DNA from: a virus
Taxonomy: Duplodnaviria; Heunggongvirae; Uroviricota; Caudoviricetes
Direction: 5' to 3' (one strand)
DNA: 4,165 bases
Virus record (IMG/VR): IMGVR_UViG_2534681736_000020
How positions within the stretch are numbered: position 1 is the first letter of the stretch; every line of letters starts with the position of its first letter. Shown one piece after another: positions 1-4,165 of the stretch. Position numbers and translations under genes: made by a program. Under the pieces are notes generated by a model. It was not told the origin of the DNA and made no database searches. It saw nothing but the letters and a program-made list of their open reading frames with translations.

Positions 1-71
1 CATCGGAAACGATGATCTGGCAGCCTGAGTTCACAGATAAAACACTCTCCAGGAAACCCGGGGCGGTTCAT
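1..71 (-). CDS. Partial hypothetical protein (N-terminus only; continues past the left edge of the window)
   Basis: Hand translation of the minus strand: ATG at 71..69 then MNRPGFPGECFICELRLPDHRFR..., open to the window edge. A GAAGGG Shine-Dalgarno-like motif lies about 8 nt upstream. Same strand and spacing as the replication genes. No recognisable homology. Confidence 0.3.
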   Translation of the reverse strand, partial: MNRPGFPGECFICELRLPDHRFR

Positions 72-87
72 AGTGCCTGCCCTTCGG

Positions 88-267
88 TTACCCCGGCTTC
101 ACCTTCGACAGCCAGAAACCAGGTGTGACCCGTTTTATCAACAACGCCATTTTTTTGAGTTCCCACAGTTCGTTAAGAACTTCTTCACGGCTGATATCAA
201 GCCGCGCCGCCAGTTCAACAGAATTGGCTTTTCCCATCGCTTTCAGTGCATGCAATACAGTTTCCAT
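88..267 (-). CDS. Small hypothetical protein, 59 aa, possible winged-helix/HTH DNA-binding protein
   Basis: Hand-translated minus-strand ORF (below the apparent 60-aa cutoff of the track): [62 protein letters not shown] at 267..265 is 25 nt downstream of the DnaC-like stop, with GAGG 10 nt upstream. The helix-turn-helix-like pattern is inference only. Contains an A7 homopolymer (plus T7 at 150..156). Confidence 0.4.
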
Positions 268-292
268 CGAAAATTTACCTCGTCAAAAATTC

Positions 293-1033
293 TCACATAC
301 CCTGACGTCCAACGTTTGACCGCCAGCTCTCCCAGTTAAAATTCACCCAACGACCACCATTCATGGTCATACGGTCCATCACCCGATCTCCGAGGAGTGT
401 GCTCATCGCTGCGTGATTCAGGTTCGTCAGCATTCCGACACTACACATCGAAGCCGTTCTGCGGTCGACTATCTGGTTCAGCGTGACCTGCTCGTTGCGC
501 GTATCCCGCTGCATGCCAATTTCATCAAGGACCAGAAGGTCAACTCCACAAAGCTCCTGTAAAAATTTTTCCCCGGACTGGCCGTTGTCGTAGCCGTCAT
601 GCAACACGCTCATGACATCGGACACGGTGACGATAATCACGCTTCTCCCCTTCGCCATCAGCCGATTGCCAATCGCTGCTGCCAGGTGATTTTTACCGGT
701 ACCAGGTTTACCGCTGAACACGAAGTTTGTACATCCGGTCATCAATTCATCGGCAATGGATTTCGCCTGGCTCAGAGCATGGCGCTGACCGTCGTTCTGC
801 ACCCGGTAGTTCCCGAATGAGCACTTCCTGTGAAGCGGCTGGATGCCCGCACGGTTCAGGATTTTTTCAACCCGCACCTGATGATTCAGGCGGTTAATCT
901 CCTCGCTGCGTTTTCGTCCTTCAGCAAGTTGCCATTCCCGCCACTCCTCCACCGTCCGGTACGGTGGAACCGCCCCCTGTGGTGCAAGTCTGCGAATACG
1001 TTCAAGAACCCCAACTGCCGCAATGTTTTTCAT
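293..1033 (-). CDS. DnaC-like AAA+ replicative helicase loader (functional analogue of lambda P; IstB/DnaC family)
   Basis: 246-aa ORF with ATG start. Walker A GKPGTGKNHLAAAIG and Walker B DLLVLDEIG are present, and the C-terminal half (NQIVDRR...GMLTNLN...LGDRVMDRM...WVNFNWESWR) closely resembles E. coli DnaC as I recall it. Sits 6 bp downstream of the O-like gene stop, typical of O-P/DnaC coupling. Confidence 0.9.
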   Translation of the reverse strand: MKNIAAVGVLERIRRLAPQGAVPPYRTVEEWREWQLAEGRKRSEEINRLNHQVRVEKILNRAGIQPLHRKCSFGNYRVQNDGQRHALSQAKSIADELMTGCTNFVFSGKPGTGKNHLAAAIGNRLMAKGRSVIIVTVSDVMSVLHDGYDNGQSGEKFLQELCGVDLLVLDEIGMQRDTRNEQVTLNQIVDRRTASMCSVGMLTNLNHAAMSTLLGDRVMDRMTMNGGRWVNFNWESWRSNVGRQGM

Positions 1034-1039
1034 GACACG

Positions 1040-2002
1040 TCACCCCCTGAATCCCGGCGGTATTTCAGTGTCCGGTTCAGAAATGTGATTCACGCAACGC
1101 TGCGCGGGCGAACGCCCCAGGCGGATAACCAGTTCATCCCATTTTTCCCGGAGTTTTGCCGGACTCATGATGTTTTTTACCCAGAACGAATCCCGCTGGA
1201 GACGCCCAAACATTTCACAAATTTGTCTGTGAGTTCTGCCATCCAGCATCCGCATTGTCCGCACGTCATTGGCCCATGCAGTCCAGTTGGGTTCTTTCGG
1301 TCTCGTGATCTCGCCATCATCGCTGGCCGCCTGCTCGTAAAGACTCACGATTCGTCCCCAGATCCACTGTGCGCACACCAAATCTTCCTGACTTCCCCAC
1401 TGGCGTTTTTTCGCACTGAACACAACCGCGTCAGGGTGTCGGGTTAAAAAATTCTGTTCAGCCGTCTGCGGGTCCGGTTGCGAAGCGTCCGGACAAGAAG
1501 ATCTTTTATCTGACGGATCAGGTTTTAATACTGACGGATTGGGGTCAATCATCGCCCCCCTAATCGGCAGTTTGTTATCAACAGTTGATCCATCAAAATT
1601 TGACGGGTCAACCGTTGAGGGGGCAATATTTGACGGGTCAACTGTTAACGGGTCATTTTTTGCCGGGCTAATTTTTCTTTTCGGTTTATATGACTCACGC
1701 GCCGCCGCAGCAGCTGCTTCGAGTTTTTCCACATTAAGCCGATAGATATTGCTTACATTACGCCCACCGACCTTACGCTCTTCCTTCGTCAGCCAGCCCT
1801 CTTTCGCCAGTTCTGCAATAGCCGATTTCACTGTGGATTCACTTCTTGCACCGATCTGACGCCGGATAGTTTCAATGGCAGGCCATGACACGCCCTCGTC
1901 ATTGCTGTAGTCTGCAAGACGGGCCATAACCGCCACCCTGGATAAGATCATGCCGGTGAAGGCGCACCCTTCCCAGACAAGACCATGAAGCTTGCTGCTC
2001 AT
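1040..2002 (-). CDS. Phage replication initiation protein (lambda O-like replisome organiser; N-terminal HTH domain, C-terminal helicase-loader-interaction domain)
   Basis: The track ORF 1040..2017 begins at GTG; the first ATG is at 2002..2000 (MSSKLHGLVWEG...) with a GGGGG run 4 nt upstream, giving 320 aa. The N-terminal HTH-like segment (VSWPAIETIRRQIGARSESTVKSAIAELAKEGWL) is followed by an Ala-rich and Pro/Ser/Thr/Asp repeat linker encoded by the iteron array, then a Trp-rich C-terminal domain. Position immediately upstream of the DnaC-like gene fits an O-type initiator. Confidence 0.8.
   Translation of the reverse strand: MSSKLHGLVWEGCAFTGMILSRVAVMARLADYSNDEGVSWPAIETIRRQIGARSESTVKSAIAELAKEGWLTKEERKVGGRNVSNIYRLNVEKLEAAAAAARESYKPKRKISPAKNDPLTVDPSNIAPSTVDPSNFDGSTVDNKLPIRGAMIDPNPSVLKPDPSDKRSSCPDASQPDPQTAEQNFLTRHPDAVVFSAKKRQWGSQEDLVCAQWIWGRIVSLYEQAASDDGEITRPKEPNWTAWANDVRTMRMLDGRTHRQICEMFGRLQRDSFWVKNIMSPAKLREKWDELVIRLGRSPAQRCVNHISEPDTEIPPGFRG
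1585..1671. repeat. Iteron array inside the O-like gene (candidate origin of replication): six 12-bp units at 15-bp spacing, forming three 30-bp higher-order repeats
   Basis: Directly visible units: TTGATCCATCAA (1585), TTGACGGGTCAA (1600), TTGAGGGGGCAA (1615), TTGACGGGTCAA (1630), TTAACGGGTCAT (1645), TTGCCGGGCTAA (1660). Each is a near-palindrome TTGAC-GG-GTCAA. TTTGACGGGTCAAC is exactly repeated at 1599..1612 and 1629..1642. A moderately AT-rich stretch follows at 1669..1695 (CTAATTTTTCTTTTCGGTTTATATGAC). The architecture is analogous to lambda ori-lambda within gene O. Confidence 0.6.
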
Positions 2003-2024
2003 AAAACCCCCGAACACCGTGCTT

Positions 2025-2450
2025 TTAGTGCATCACCACAGCATTCCCTGCCGGGCCGCCGCGATTCATCTGGTCATACAAAACAACCGCTGACGCAACA
2101 AAATCATCGACATCCTTCACCAGCCGATCCCTCCGTTCGACGATCTCACGGTAATATTCAGAACTGTGGCTGCGCATACGGGCCACCAGCAAAGGCGGCA
2201 TCGCCTTTTCGATCGCCGGTAACAGAGCCTGCATTTTTTCAACAGCATCAGGGGTGTCTTTATCCAGCCAACGGAAAATTTTCTGGGTATTACGGGCCAG
2301 GGCTTCCGGATGGCTGTCGTCATACAGTTCCGGGAACGTCATTCCCAGCTCGAAATACGCTTTGGTAATTTTCGCAGCCGGTACTTTTTCGCCGTCCGGA
2401 TGCGCCCAGACATTCATCGCCATGCGGATGTGTTCATGCTTGATTTTCAT
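2025..2450 (-). CDS. YdaT-like protein at the cII position (YdaT family; reported functional analogue of CII)
   Basis: 141-aa ORF with ATG start. The N-terminus MKIKHEHI... and the position immediately after the Cro/YdaS-like gene (ATGA overlap at 2447..2450, GGAG 7 nt upstream) match the ydaS-ydaT arrangement of Rac-type prophages. Family assignment is from recall, not a search. Confidence 0.65.
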   Translation of the reverse strand: MKIKHEHIRMAMNVWAHPDGEKVPAAKITKAYFELGMTFPELYDDSHPEALARNTQKIFRWLDKDTPDAVEKMQALLPAIEKAMPPLLVARMRSHSSEYYREIVERRDRLVKDVDDFVASAVVLYDQMNRGGPAGNAVVMH

Positions 2451-2749
2451 GAATCAACTCCATCAGATAAGCATGCACTACAATCACCTTCAGCATGAAC
2501 TACATGTGTTTGCCCCAAACGAATGCCGCTCGCATACTCAGGCCAAATAAGCTCCCAATCATGGGGTCGTAGCTCCGCCCTACTTACTTGGCCTTCCGTC
2601 GCAGATTCGATCATAAGGGCGCGGGTTGGAGATATAGCTGTTCGTCCAGACGCCATTTGCGATAAGTAAGATGGCGATACACCAAGTCTGGCCGCGAATT
2701 TCTTAGCATCACCAACCCTTAATGATTTAATAAACTCTTTTAATGTCAT
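2447..2749 (-). CDS. Cro/YdaS-like HTH transcriptional regulator (Cro analogue)
   Basis: 100-aa ORF with ATG at 2749..2747 and GAGGAAGG Shine-Dalgarno at 2758..2751. HTH motif KKFAARLGVSPSYLSQMASGRTAISPTRALMIESAT. Divergent from the repressor gene and first gene of the replication-side operon. Confidence 0.8.
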   Translation of the reverse strand: MTLKEFIKSLRVGDAKKFAARLGVSPSYLSQMASGRTAISPTRALMIESATEGQVSRAELRPHDWELIWPEYASGIRLGQTHVVHAEGDCSACLSDGVDS

Positions 2750-2759
2750 ACCTTCCTCG

Positions 2760-2846
2760 GTTTAGTGTTTTTTTGCGAGTTTAGTGTTTAATAAACCATT
2801 AAGTCAAGTATTTGCTTGTTTAGTGATTACTAAAGATAATTACCAC
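2760..2846. promoter_or_regulatory. Divergent promoter/operator region (PR-like and PRM-like) between the cro-like and repressor genes
   Basis: Plus strand (repressor): -35 TTGCTT 2812..2817, 17-bp spacer, -10 GATAAT 2835..2840, ATG at 2847. Minus strand (cro-like): -35 TTGACT at plus 2802..2807, about 18-bp spacer, -10 TAAACT at plus 2778..2783. Three direct repeats: GTTTAGTGTTT at 2760..2770 and 2779..2789, GTTTAGTGATT at 2818..2828. The 11-mer GTTTAATAAAC at 2786..2796 is the reverse complement of GTTTATTAAAC at 3810..3820. Confidence 0.5.
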
Positions 2847-3218
2847 ATGCAAAAAAAAGAAATTCGCCGTTTACGTCTCAAGGAGTGGTTTAAAGATAAA
2901 ACTCTGCCACCCAAAGAGAAGAGCTACCTATCTCAACTAATGAGTGGGAGAGCCTCGTTTGGAGAAAAGGCTGCCAGAAGAATAGAGCAAACATACGGGA
3001 TGCCGGAAGGGTATCTGGATGCGGAATACGCAGAACAACCGGGGGGTTCTCCACCACATGCAGGGTTAACGTCTAATCAACTGGAATTATTGCAGATTTT
3101 TTCAGCCTTCCCTGAGGATGAGCAACGCCAGATAATCAGCGAGTTAAAGCAGAAAAAAGAATCAATGGAAGATCTCATAGCGAGATGGATTGCGGCGCAA
3201 AAATGCCGCCGCGCCTGA
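2847..3218 (+). CDS. paaR2: CI-type phage repressor-like HTH regulator, 123 aa; probable PaaR2-like regulator of the downstream toxin-antitoxin pair
   Basis: The track ORF 2784..3218 starts at GTG inside an operator repeat; the first ATG is at 2847, 7 nt after the GATAAT -10, with no Shine-Dalgarno, so probably leaderless. HTH motif SYLSQLMSGRASFGEKAARRIEQTYGMPEGYLD. The C-terminal LELLQIFSAFPEDEQRQIISEL resembles the DicA/CI-like C-terminal region. Size and gene order match my recollection of PaaR2 (symbol from recall, unverified). Confidence 0.75.
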   Translation: MQKKEIRRLRLKEWFKDKTLPPKEKSYLSQLMSGRASFGEKAARRIEQTYGMPEGYLDAEYAEQPGGSPPHAGLTSNQLELLQIFSAFPEDEQRQIISELKQKKESMEDLIARWIAAQKCRRA

Positions 3219-3238
3219 GTTATAAAACCGGAGGAAAC

Positions 3239-3430
3239 ATGAATAGAGCCCTTTCACCAATGGTTTCTGAATTTGAAACCATTGAACAAGAAAACAGTTA
3301 CAACGAATGGCTGCGTGCGAAAGTAGCAACGAGCCTTGCAGATCCGCGCCCAGCAATTCCCCATGACGAAGTTGAGCGCAGAATGGCAGAACGCTTTGCT
3401 AAGATGCGCAAGGAACGGAGCAAGCAGTAA
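3239..3430 (+). CDS. paaA2: Small antitoxin, 63 aa, of a ParE-type toxin-antitoxin pair (PaaA2-like)
   Basis: The track ORF 3185..3430 has an N-terminal extension overlapping the repressor 3' end. The ATG at 3239 has a strong GGAGG Shine-Dalgarno at 3229..3233 with a 5-nt spacer. The product MNRALSPMVSEFETIEQENSYNEWLRAKVATSLADPRPAIPHDEVERRMAERFAKMRKERSKQ is small and charged, and its stop lies 1 nt before the toxin ATG. Matches my recollection of the 63-aa PaaA2 of E. coli O157:H7. Confidence 0.75.
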   Translation: MNRALSPMVSEFETIEQENSYNEWLRAKVATSLADPRPAIPHDEVERRMAERFAKMRKERSKQ

Positions 3431-3431
3431 A

Positions 3432-3710
3432 ATGTTACCCGTGTTATGGCTTGAAAGCGCAGATACCGACCTAGATGATATAACTAGTTATATTGCTCGT
3501 TTCGACATAGATGCGGCTGAACGCTTATGGCAGCGATTAAGGGGTTGTGTGCTGCCGTTATCCGAACATCCGTATTTATACCCACCAAGCGACAGAGTAC
3601 CTGGCTTGCGTGAGATTGTAGCCCACCCTAACTATATAATTCTATACCGCGTAACAACATCAAGCGTTGAAGTAGTAAACGTGATCCACGCAAGACGCCA
3701 GTTTCCCTAA
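3432..3710 (+). CDS. parE2: ParE/RelE-superfamily toxin, 92 aa (ParE2-like)
   Basis: The track ORF 3336..3710 includes an upstream in-frame extension; the real start is most likely ATG 3432, 1 nt after the antitoxin stop. Product MLPVLWLESADTDLDDITSYIARFDIDAAERLWQRLRGCVLPLSEHPYLYPPSDRVPGLREIVAHPNYIILYRVTTSSVEVVNVIHARRQFP has typical ParE-family size and features. Symbol is from recall of the paaR2-paaA2-parE2 module. Confidence 0.8.
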   Translation: MLPVLWLESADTDLDDITSYIARFDIDAAERLWQRLRGCVLPLSEHPYLYPPSDRVPGLREIVAHPNYIILYRVTTSSVEVVNVIHARRQFP

Positions 3711-3728
3711 CTTTCACTACCAATAGAA

Positions 3729-3775
3729 ACATAACAACCGCAACGACTTTATCAAAAGCGTTGTGTTTGTTATGT
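3729..3775 (+). other. Long imperfect inverted repeat (17-bp arms, 13-nt loop) just downstream of the toxin stop; possible terminator or processing/recognition structure
   Basis: ACATAACAACCGCAACG (3729..3745) pairs with CGTTGTGTTTGTTATGT (3759..3775), with one mismatch and one G-U as RNA. The T-rich GGTTTAGTTTTTA follows only after a CCCGC gap, so this is not a canonical intrinsic terminator. Confidence 0.3.
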
Positions 3776-3777
3776 CC

Positions 3778-3822
3778 CGCGGTTTAGTTTTTACTTGACT
3801 TAAGTTTAATGTTTATTAAACT
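3778..3822 (+). promoter_or_regulatory. PL-like promoter with overlapping palindromic operator, mirroring the PR-like module
   Basis: -35 TTGACT 3794..3799, 16-bp spacer, -10 TAAACT 3816..3821. Perfect palindrome AGTTTAAT-GTTT-ATTAAACT at 3802..3821. Upstream repeat-like GTTTAGTTTTT at 3779..3789. TACTTGACTTAA at 3791..3802 is the reverse complement of TTAAGTCAAGTA at 2799..2810. Confidence 0.4.
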
Positions 3823-3914
3823 AAAAATACCAACCCACCCCGCCCCACAGAACGCAGGGAAATACTTCGAGTTACCCGGCAGTGGTCAGGGGTTAAGTAG
3901 CCAGCCCGAGGCGT

Positions 3915-4088
3915 ATGAACATGACGGCAGGGTTCAACTTTAATAACTATGCAGCAGGTTTTTGTTCCGCTACCCCGGCGTTAAGGGGAAACAGAGGGTT
4001 TCTCAGTGGGCGAAGTCAAACATCAGAATGGAAGGCATCCCGGGATCGGCAAAGAAGCAGCAATGGCGCTTTATATTGACATCAGCGC
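3915..4088 (+). CDS. Doubtful small ORF, 57 aa, Arg/Gly/Ser-rich
   Basis: Hand translation: MNMTAGFNFNNYAAGFCSATPALRGNRGFLSGRSQTSEWKASRDRQRSSNGALY. GAGG lies 4 nt upstream of the ATG. Low-complexity composition, so it may be non-coding leader sequence. Confidence 0.15.
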
Positions 4089-4165
4089 CATTGCAGGACA
4101 GGTAAGAGTTATCAGAGCGGTAACTAAGCGGTATGCGCCTTTACTTCAGAAAGTCTCTGGTGAGT
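4063..4165 (+). CDS. Possible 5' end of a gene continuing past the right edge of the window
   Basis: ATG at 4063 (AAGAAG 5 nt upstream) opens MALYIDISAIAGQVRVIRAVTKRYAPLLQKVSGE..., which stays open to the window end. Same strand as the repressor operon and the predicted PL-like promoter. No recognisable homology. Confidence 0.25.
   Translation, partial: MALYIDISAIAGQVRVIRAVTKRYAPLLQKVSGE

Follow-up and report, generated by a model that had tools for sequence, protein, structure and literature searches.

We examined the paaR2-paaA2-parE2 module carried by a 4,165-nucleotide (nt) stretch of DNA from the virus record IMGVR_UViG_2534681736_000020, referred to here as the window, with positions counted from its first letter. 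Seven co-linear genes were found in the window, four on the minus strand and three on the plus strand. They are given below with the evidence for each assignment, the three genes of the module first and their minus-strand neighbours after them (aa, amino acids; ORF, open reading frame; PDB, Protein Data Bank; HTH, helix-turn-helix).

2847..3218, plus strand: paaR2, CI-analogue immunity repressor, 123 aa (identity of the N-terminal domain to PDB 7nkv/8c3k/8c3l; PHROG 5736, E 7e-39)
3239..3430, plus strand: paaA2, antitoxin, 63 aa, without a DNA-binding domain (identity to PDB 3zbe/5cw7; Pfam PaaA2 PF21217, E 1e-19)
3432..3710, plus strand: parE2, ParE-family toxin, 92 aa (identity to PDB 5cw7_B; Pfam ParE_toxin, E 1.9e-16)
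2447..2749, minus strand: ydaS, Cro analogue, 100 aa (Pfam YdaS_toxin, E 3.3e-12, and HTH_3, E 6e-7; PHROG 35, transcriptional repressor)
2025..2450, minus strand: ydaT, CII analogue, 141 aa (Pfam YdaT_toxin PF06254, E 2.8e-10; PHROG 163 'CII-like transcriptional activator', E 3e-47)
1040..2002, minus strand: O-like replication initiator gene (ORF list and Pfam)
293..1033, minus strand: DnaC/IstB-like ATPase gene (ORF list and Pfam)

An earlier interpretation of this DNA, made from its letters alone (the sequence-only reading), had described the three module genes as co-oriented, with a gap of 1 nt between antitoxin and toxin, and as divergent from a cro-like gene. Direct inspection of the codons confirmed this arrangement: paaR2 runs from ATG at 2847 to TGA at 3216-3218, paaA2 from ATG at 3239 (with a GGAGGA Shine-Dalgarno sequence 5 nt upstream) to TAA at 3428-3430, and parE2 from ATG at 3432 to TAA at 3708-3710, base 3431 being the sole nucleotide between the paaA2 stop and the parE2 start. 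The 20 nt between paaR2 and paaA2, which lie on the same strand, contained no promoter-like site in a consensus promoter scan, and co-transcription of the three genes is known from the literature (PMC8630535). On the other side, ydaS is divergent from paaR2, and the two start codons are 97 bp apart (2750..2846).

Residues 1-66 of PaaR2 were identical to PDB 7nkv/8c3k, a deposit entitled 'Phage repressor protein CI', residues 2-63 of PaaA2 were identical to PDB 3zbe/5cw7, and ParE2 was identical to 5cw7_B over its entire length (92/92 residues). In Pfam, PF21217 scored 70.7 bits in PaaA2 (cut-off 27) as the only domain in the 63 aa, and ParE_toxin PF05016 scored 60.9 bits in ParE2 (cut-off 23), while in PHROGs all five proteins fell in phage families, PaaR2 as a 'transcriptional regulator'. 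The module, judged from these matches, consists of real genes rather than chance ORFs, and it has what characterises the PaaR-PaaA-ParE class, namely a ParE-family toxin, a PaaA protein without a DNA-binding domain and a co-oriented regulator gene upstream. From position 71 onward, the window was 100% identical to many E. coli O157:H7 chromosomes in a DNA comparison. Because the proteins are identical to the solved ones and the DNA to that of O157:H7, the window is the published paaR2-paaA2-parE2 locus; the likeness to the O157:H7 genes that the sequence-only reading had noticed is thus identity, of the same locus. The window is the immunity region of the cryptic lambdoid prophage CP-933P (strain EDL933) or Sp12 (strain Sakai) of E. 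coli O157:H7. In strain FRIK944 the region lies within a lambdoid prophage adjoining ynfA; rightward of the module come ydfC, dicB, exo, xis and an int with a frameshift, and leftward ydaS, ydaT, the O-like and DnaC-like replication genes, and then Q, lysis, terminase and capsid genes.

We detected the following operators and promoters around the module, together with a hairpin downstream of it.

2750..2846, no strand: divergent operator/promoter region OR, 97 bp (repeat family D1; half-site matches; PaaR2 and YdaS footprints, PMC8630535)
2779-2796 (GTTTAGTGTTTAATAAAC) and 2818-2835 (GTTTAGTGATTACTAAAG): 18-bp palindromes of OR, with an extra GTTTAGTG copy at 2760
2778..2807, minus strand: promoter PR933P, TTGACT, 18-nt spacer, TAAACT (consensus scan; 5' RACE (rapid amplification of cDNA ends) and gfp fusions, PMC8630535)
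2812..2847, plus strand: promoter PRM933P, TTGCTT at 2812-2817, 17-nt spacer, GATAAT at 2835-2840, +1 at A2847 (hexamers read from the sequence)
2440..2457, no strand: YdaT operator OM, TTGATTTTCATGAATCAA, covering both the stop of ydaS and the start of ydaT (agreeing exactly with the published TTGATTN6AATCAA)
3782..3822, plus strand: OL/PL933P, operators at 3782-3799 and 3804-3821 overlapping a promoter with TTGACT at 3795-3800, 16-nt spacer and TAAACT at 3817-3822
3729..3775, plus strand: long hairpin with imperfect pairing, downstream of the parE2 stop and ahead of OL (inverted repeat I3; its 22-nt arms are 82% complementary)

Promoters had been anticipated in 2750..2846 and 3778..3822, and the consensus scan found one in each, with identical -35 and -10 hexamers (TTGACT-18-TAAACT from 2807 to 2778 on the minus strand, and TTGACT-16-TAAACT from 3795 to 3822 on the plus strand). 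PR933P drives ydaS-ydaT and the replication genes, and PL933P reads rightward into ydfC-dicB-exo-xis-int. GTTTAGT-type repeats were present at 2760, 2779 and 2818 in OR and at 3782 and 3804 in OL, and the window contained 22 matches to the half-site GTTTAGTAA (up to 2 mismatches), where 9.45 +/- 3.09 were expected; 0 of 200 shuffles reached 22. OR and OL are also linked by a 12-nt perfect inverted match (2799-2810 with 3792-3803, repeat I5). With paaR2 divergent from cro and the operators repeated at OR and OL, the gene holds the position of an immunity repressor. The +1 of PRM933P coincides with the A of the paaR2 ATG, which makes the mRNA leaderless, and no Shine-Dalgarno sequence was seen ahead of this ATG on inspection of the sequence. 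The motif TTGATTN6AATCAA had a single match in the whole window, at OM, on which a DNase I footprint of YdaT has been reported (PMC9986795). The 97-bp OR, the PR, PRM and PL promoters, the YdaT site and the ydaS-ydaT genes all agree with the published CP-933P/Sp12 RAE2 locus, whose module is no different from that of the window.

Jurenas et al. 2021 (mBio, PMC8630535) studied exactly this region. They found the paaR2 transcript to be leaderless like that of cI, based on 5' RACE, N-terminal sequencing (MQKKE) and mass spectrometry, and obtained footprints of about 78 bp for PaaR2 and about 65 bp for YdaS in the 97-bp intergenic region. Each of the two proteins represses PRM933P and PR933P, PL933P is repressed about 100-fold by PaaR2 and likewise by YdaS, and at a low dose PaaR2 activates PRM933P and represses PR933P. 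YdaT activates PRE933P, a PRE-like promoter between ydaS and ydaT. PaaR2 and YdaS form a bistable switch whose state is heritable, PaaR2 forms octamers, carries no S24 peptidase motif and is unresponsive to mitomycin C, and the whole region stabilises an unstable mini-F plasmid. Toxicity of ParE2, its neutralisation by PaaA2 and post-segregational killing were likewise reported for exactly this sequence (PMC8630535). The tests of toxicity with and without antitoxin and of promoter fusions with and without the regulator, which the sequence-only reading had proposed, are therefore already in the literature, and DNA binding, promoter control, leaderless translation, bistability, toxin neutralisation and plasmid stabilisation are all experimentally shown there. 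The supposition that the regulator doubles as the immunity repressor is borne out by the OR footprint and the repression of PR and PL published in 2021 (PMC8630535), and the placement of the toxin-antitoxin (TA) pair in the rexAB position of lambda is likewise a published conclusion (Jurenas et al. 2021), given almost verbatim, together with the immunity-repressor role, by Prolic-Kalinsek et al. 2023. The locus, its proteins, its operators and the reading 'CI plus TA instead of rexAB' are thus already published, and our own additions are minor: the immunity region of phage Evi, the kinship of the DNA-binding domain with S24 repressors, and the PaaR2-type loci without a TA pair.

The likeness to cI-rexA-rexB of lambda extends over several features: in both, the repressor gene is the first of a leftward operon divergent from cro and has a leaderless mRNA, accessory genes lie between the repressor and OL/PL, OR and OL each carry copies of the operators, the cro/cII junction holds the PRE of a CII-type activator, and the O-like gene contains an origin-like array of repeats. 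Unlike lambda CI, however, PaaR2 is without the S24 autocleavage domain and does not respond to mitomycin C, and CP-933P has four equally spaced 18-bp repeats in place of the three operators of lambda (PMC8630535). The cargo also differs, being a ParE TA pair here and RexAB in lambda; we found no homology of the downstream genes to RexA or RexB, as Pfam, PHROGs and PDB returned PaaA2 and ParE, and position alone is shared. Among the prophages of K-12, DicA/DicC of Qin and RacR/YdaS/YdaT of Rac have, as here, a short S24-less repressor over a divergent cro-like gene, and a PL-type operon coding for inhibitors of cell division (dicB, kilR) is held down by the repressor; Qin and CP-933P also share their attachment region near ynfA. 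Their repressor operons differ in having no TA pair, and the repressors are unrelated in sequence to PaaR2.

Taken together, we assign a probability of about 0.9 to the published account, in which PaaR2 is the CI analogue of the prophage and the TA pair lies in its operon, combined with the reading of that pair as cargo, which our results strengthen. PaaR2 binds the repeated GTTTAGT-type operators at OR (2750-2846) and OL (3782-3822) and shuts off the rightward-lytic promoter PR933P (ydaS, ydaT and the replication genes) and PL933P (ydfC, dicB, exo, xis and int); at low level it stimulates its own leaderless promoter PRM933P. YdaS competes for the same operators, giving two heritable states, and YdaT, on binding OM, turns on PRE933P as a second route to paaR2 expression. 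Since PaaA2 has no DNA-binding domain, PaaA2 and ParE2 ride as passengers of the repressor operon, in the slot that rexAB takes in lambda. PaaA2 is protease-labile, and cells losing the region would therefore be killed or arrested by the remaining ParE2, which would make the immunity region addictive. We infer that, through the TA pair, the prophage or its immunity region is stably maintained in the chromosome.

Several points weigh against this account. ParE2 activity was detected in neither transcriptional state (PMC8630535), and for this reason the biological role of the TA pair is put forward as a proposal. In addition, plasmid reporter cells were mostly in the ydaST-on state and not in the repressor-on state (PMC8630535), and the published assays used plasmids in K-12, while CP-933P itself is cryptic. 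PaaR2 also lacks an S24 domain. Finally, our survey of homologue contexts, presented below, takes in a few loci and does not amount to a census.

We then weighed whether PaaR2 could be the dedicated regulator of an ordinary passenger TA module, with a separate canonical cI controlling PR and PL. PaaR2 was first described as the regulator of a TA operon (Hallez 2010, as related in a citing paper), and it has no CI or HTH match above threshold in Pfam, where no family matched at E<=0.01 and HTH_31 appeared below threshold only (E 0.064). The sequence-only label of a CI-type HTH repressor accordingly found no support in Pfam, and because of this it rests on the name of the deposited structure and on the homologues, both of which uphold it; the N-terminal HTH DNA-binding domain itself is present, as seen in the structure deposit and in the columns shared with S24-bearing repressors. 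Against a dedicated regulator stand the published OR footprint and repression of PR and PL. The second cI whose absence from the prophage the sequence-only reading had wanted verified was not encountered either, no other repressor gene being annotated between the int and head genes; the adjacent Sp11-like prophage carries its own LexA-family/Cro pair. Furthermore, no S24-type repressor was found among the candidate regulator ORFs scanned in the complete 40-kb genome of Escherichia phage Evi (LR597642), which carries the same module, and PaaR2 homologues hold the immunity position in prophages that lack any TA pair. We therefore give a dedicated TA regulator hardly any credence.

Escherichia phage Evi (40,019 bp) matched window positions 2400-3830 at 98.3% identity. 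Its ydaS/OR/paaR2/paaA2/parE2/OL region lies at 23885-25315, with an intact parE2 that is unannotated in the record. The OR of Evi differs from that of the window at 1 of 97 positions, the N-terminal domain of PaaR2 and the whole of ParE2 are identical, and PaaA2 differs by one residue. The gene set of Evi is full, with structural, lysis, replication and integration genes, and the phage, a temperate coliphage, was obtained from infant faecal material by plaque purification (PMC6969025; PMC10910852); our literature search found no paper connecting it with PaaR2. The only other HTH regulator of Evi is an HTH_3-Cupin_2 protein in the nin region beside a GNAT gene, and, lacking an S24 domain, it does not count as a CI-type repressor. 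We also observed that this part of the nin region (LR597642, 20628-21841), with divergent genes for the GNAT acetyltransferase and the 254-aa HTH_3-Cupin_2 regulator, is absent from CP-933P. As a viable temperate phage carries the module, the latter may be a working immunity region and not the relic of a dead prophage. A more extended version of this idea, which we hold tentatively and consider possible rather than probable, is that the S24-less repressor is inactivated by other means (an antirepressor, proteolysis or a growth-phase signal), with the ParE2 pair punishing the replacement of the immunity region by heteroimmune recombinants or excluding phages in the manner of RexAB. Evi, a homoimmune plaque-forming phage, together with the S24-bearing relatives of the DNA-binding domain and the variable cargo slot, opens true immunity, the route of induction and the toxin's function to tests in a live system.

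The distribution of the module was assessed in 5426 complete E. coli genomes. The whole module was found at a coverage of at least 80% in 595/5426 genomes, and paaR2 plus OR, at an identity of at least 95%, in 593/5426. The TA pair was likewise found in 593/5426 genomes at an identity of at least 95%, and in 686/5426 at a coverage of at least 80%. Such numbers are consistent with the TA pair accompanying this paaR2 allele in every case; the pair itself occurs in additional genomes under other regulators. In strain RM8082, PaaA and ParE were 95% and 89% identical to those of the window, and the preceding repressor had an unrelated XRE-type N-terminal domain, although its last 46 residues were 59% identical to PaaR2; its operators and cro gene also differed. 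Further heteroimmune variants of similar kind were present in other E. coli strains. Like paaR1-paaA1-parE1 of CP-933M, they keep the three-gene order, pointing away from ydaS/ydaT-type genes and with a dicB operon downstream (locus L006 is probably of the paaR1 type). The variants retain PaaA, ParE and the C-terminal 46 residues of PaaR, but they differ in their classic XRE-type N-terminal domain, cro and operator sequences, and their immunity specificity would therefore differ. The joint conservation of these parts suggested that the PaaR C-terminal domain serves as a docking site for PaaA-ParE; we rejected this rule, as the same domain type is found in TA-less repressors of Rahnella, Photorhabdus, Providencia and Salmonella. 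In E. coli O157:H16 98-3133 (L007, 2169-3480), we observed two tandem regulators ahead of PaaA-ParE, one of the PaaR2 type with 123 aa and one of the XRE type with 153 aa, the latter with the PaaR C-terminal motif and a frame overlapping the paaA start; this arrangement looks like a recombinant between two immunity types.

PaaR2 is composed of a DNA-binding domain (residues 1 to about 66) and a short C-terminal domain (about 78-123). It gave no match to the S24 family PF00717 and ends at residue 123; because the S24 autopeptidase domain is absent, it works like CI yet stands outside the S24 repressor family. When one genome of each species was scanned with the PaaR alignment, a single locus was returned, not enough for a census, and protein homologues and their contigs were used instead. 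Full-length homologues of 117-131 aa, 44-54% identical to PaaR2, were found in Photorhabdus, Xenorhabdus, Providencia, Serratia, Salmonella, Cedecea and Mixta. A second set comprised Peptidase_S24 repressors of about 210 aa (P0061-P0120; Serratia, Yersinia and Erwiniaceae), whose first 58 or so residues were 70-80% identical to PaaR2. The alignment of PaaR2 with the S24-bearing repressors (A4) had 29 invariant columns within residues 1-58, and the GDSM-containing domain was confined to the homologues of about 210 aa. PaaR2 thus looks like a domain-swapped relative of the cleavable CI-type repressors.

In all the homologue contexts that we examined, the repressor and a YdaS-type cro pointed away from each other, and this cro was usually accompanied by replication genes and by a YdaT or Phage_CII gene. 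The Serratia S24 repressor P0066 (L015/L016, 3001-3645), the only S24 homologue whose context was examined, holds the same immunity position. The full-length homologue loci checked in Photorhabdus, Providencia, Salmonella, Cedecea and Mixta had no TA pair, and most stood beside recognisable replication genes; among the contexts examined, the PaaA2/ParE pair followed the repressor in the E. coli example only, the slot being elsewhere empty or occupied by unrelated genes. Proteins of the PaaR2 type would accordingly be immunity repressors first, with the short PaaR C-terminal domain as a probable alternative to the S24 domain. Because PaaR2-type repressors outside Escherichia keep their position without a TA pair, the latter is probably cargo in a variable slot beside a pre-existing repressor, as the 2021 authors suspected.

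These homologues also bear on the possibility, raised by the same authors (PMC8630535), that PaaR2 and PaaA2 derive from one broken DNA-binding antitoxin, in which case the likeness to a cI operon would be secondary. HTH domains are common in type II antitoxins. Full repression of the operon, moreover, reportedly requires PaaR2 together with the PaaA2-ParE2 complex, and such co-repression would agree with a split antitoxin. The high identity of the N-terminal domain of PaaR2 to the DNA-binding domain of S24-type prophage repressors speaks against it, as do the presence of both its N- and C-terminal domains in TA-less immunity repressors and the closely related PaaA-ParE pair of RM8082, which follows a repressor with an unrelated N-terminal domain. 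On this evidence a split antitoxin appears very improbable, and an immunity repressor that took on a TA pair remains the preferred reading.

As to the role of the cargo, the slot downstream of PaaR2-type repressors appears to behave as a variable cargo or defence site. On a Providencia contig (L012, 2255-3868), a 537-aa SIR2-domain protein is encoded directly downstream of the PaaR2 homologue, and it matched the PADLOC candidate defence family PDC-S25 (E 2.8e-204), with a weaker similarity to ThsA. Several TA families act in phage defence. The TA pair could then be a functional counterpart of RexAB that protects lysogens by abortive infection or exclusion, which concerns the cargo only and is compatible with PaaR2 as the immunity repressor. 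Besides the Providencia gene in the equivalent slot, the shared position and transcription unit argue for such a role; PaaR2, PaaA2 and ParE2, on the other hand, matched no PADLOC defence model, our literature search found no report of phage exclusion mediated by ParE2, and the sole demonstrated phenotype is post-segregational killing. We consider a Rex-like function unlikely, though still plausible enough to be kept in mind. Whatever its role, a TA pair that gives up autoregulation and depends on the lysis-lysogeny switch of a prophage makes the locus a useful model.

Downstream of parE2, the RNA fold of 3705-3800, with the 3729-3775 hairpin as its main element, had an energy of -24.8 kcal/mol (z -4.57), and 0 of 200 shuffles folded as well. 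The hairpin has no canonical U-tail on the plus strand, and by its tIMM-like position it may mark the end of the operon; in the RM8082 variant, a short GC stem followed by a T-run stands in its place. A hidden RNA element was considered and discarded, as an Rfam search over the whole window (E<=1) gave only a meaningless miRNA match on this hairpin. Further on, about 165 nt transcribed from PL (3828-3991) were 96-97.5% identical in prophages with unrelated repressor, cro and operators (L004, L006 and the neighbouring Sp11-like prophage, L002 23368-23523). For 3828-3991 no sign of RNA structure was obtained, the single sequence giving z +1.48 and the 7 sequences compared giving 0 compensatory pairs, and Rfam had no match; the conserved segment may serve as a linker in recombination, contain a nut/put-like site or encode a small ORF. 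From window 4064-4165 onward (L001, 23994-24350), records disagree on which gene comes first after PL: the Evi record calls a 118-aa plus-strand ORF (MALYIDISAIAG...) from window 4064, with no Pfam match, whereas RefSeq calls a nested antisense minus-strand gene of 66 aa, 'ECs_2282 family putative zinc-binding protein', at window 4141-4341.

At the left edge, window positions 1-70 are the terminal end of the insertion sequence (IS) IS1203/IS629 of the IS3 family, an exact match to L017 2896-2965, immediately beyond the stop of the transposase gene. In the source genome this IS copy interrupts the DUF1627 gene, of which the minus-strand ORF 88..267 is the N-terminal remnant, and FRIK944 has no IS element at this spot. 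The idea that the matches H1-H3, which cover these 70 bases, meant a different genomic context was rejected, as the bases are the end of an IS1203 copy. Finally, 15-nt periodic repeats (TCAAnnnTTGAnGGG-like) were observed at 1578-1667 inside the O-like replication gene, comprising five overlapping 30-nt copies at 15-nt spacing and a 33-nt inverted repeat. The array encodes a repetitive peptide (DPSN.../STVD...) and resembles an origin of the iteron type that, as in lambda, would lie within the initiator gene.

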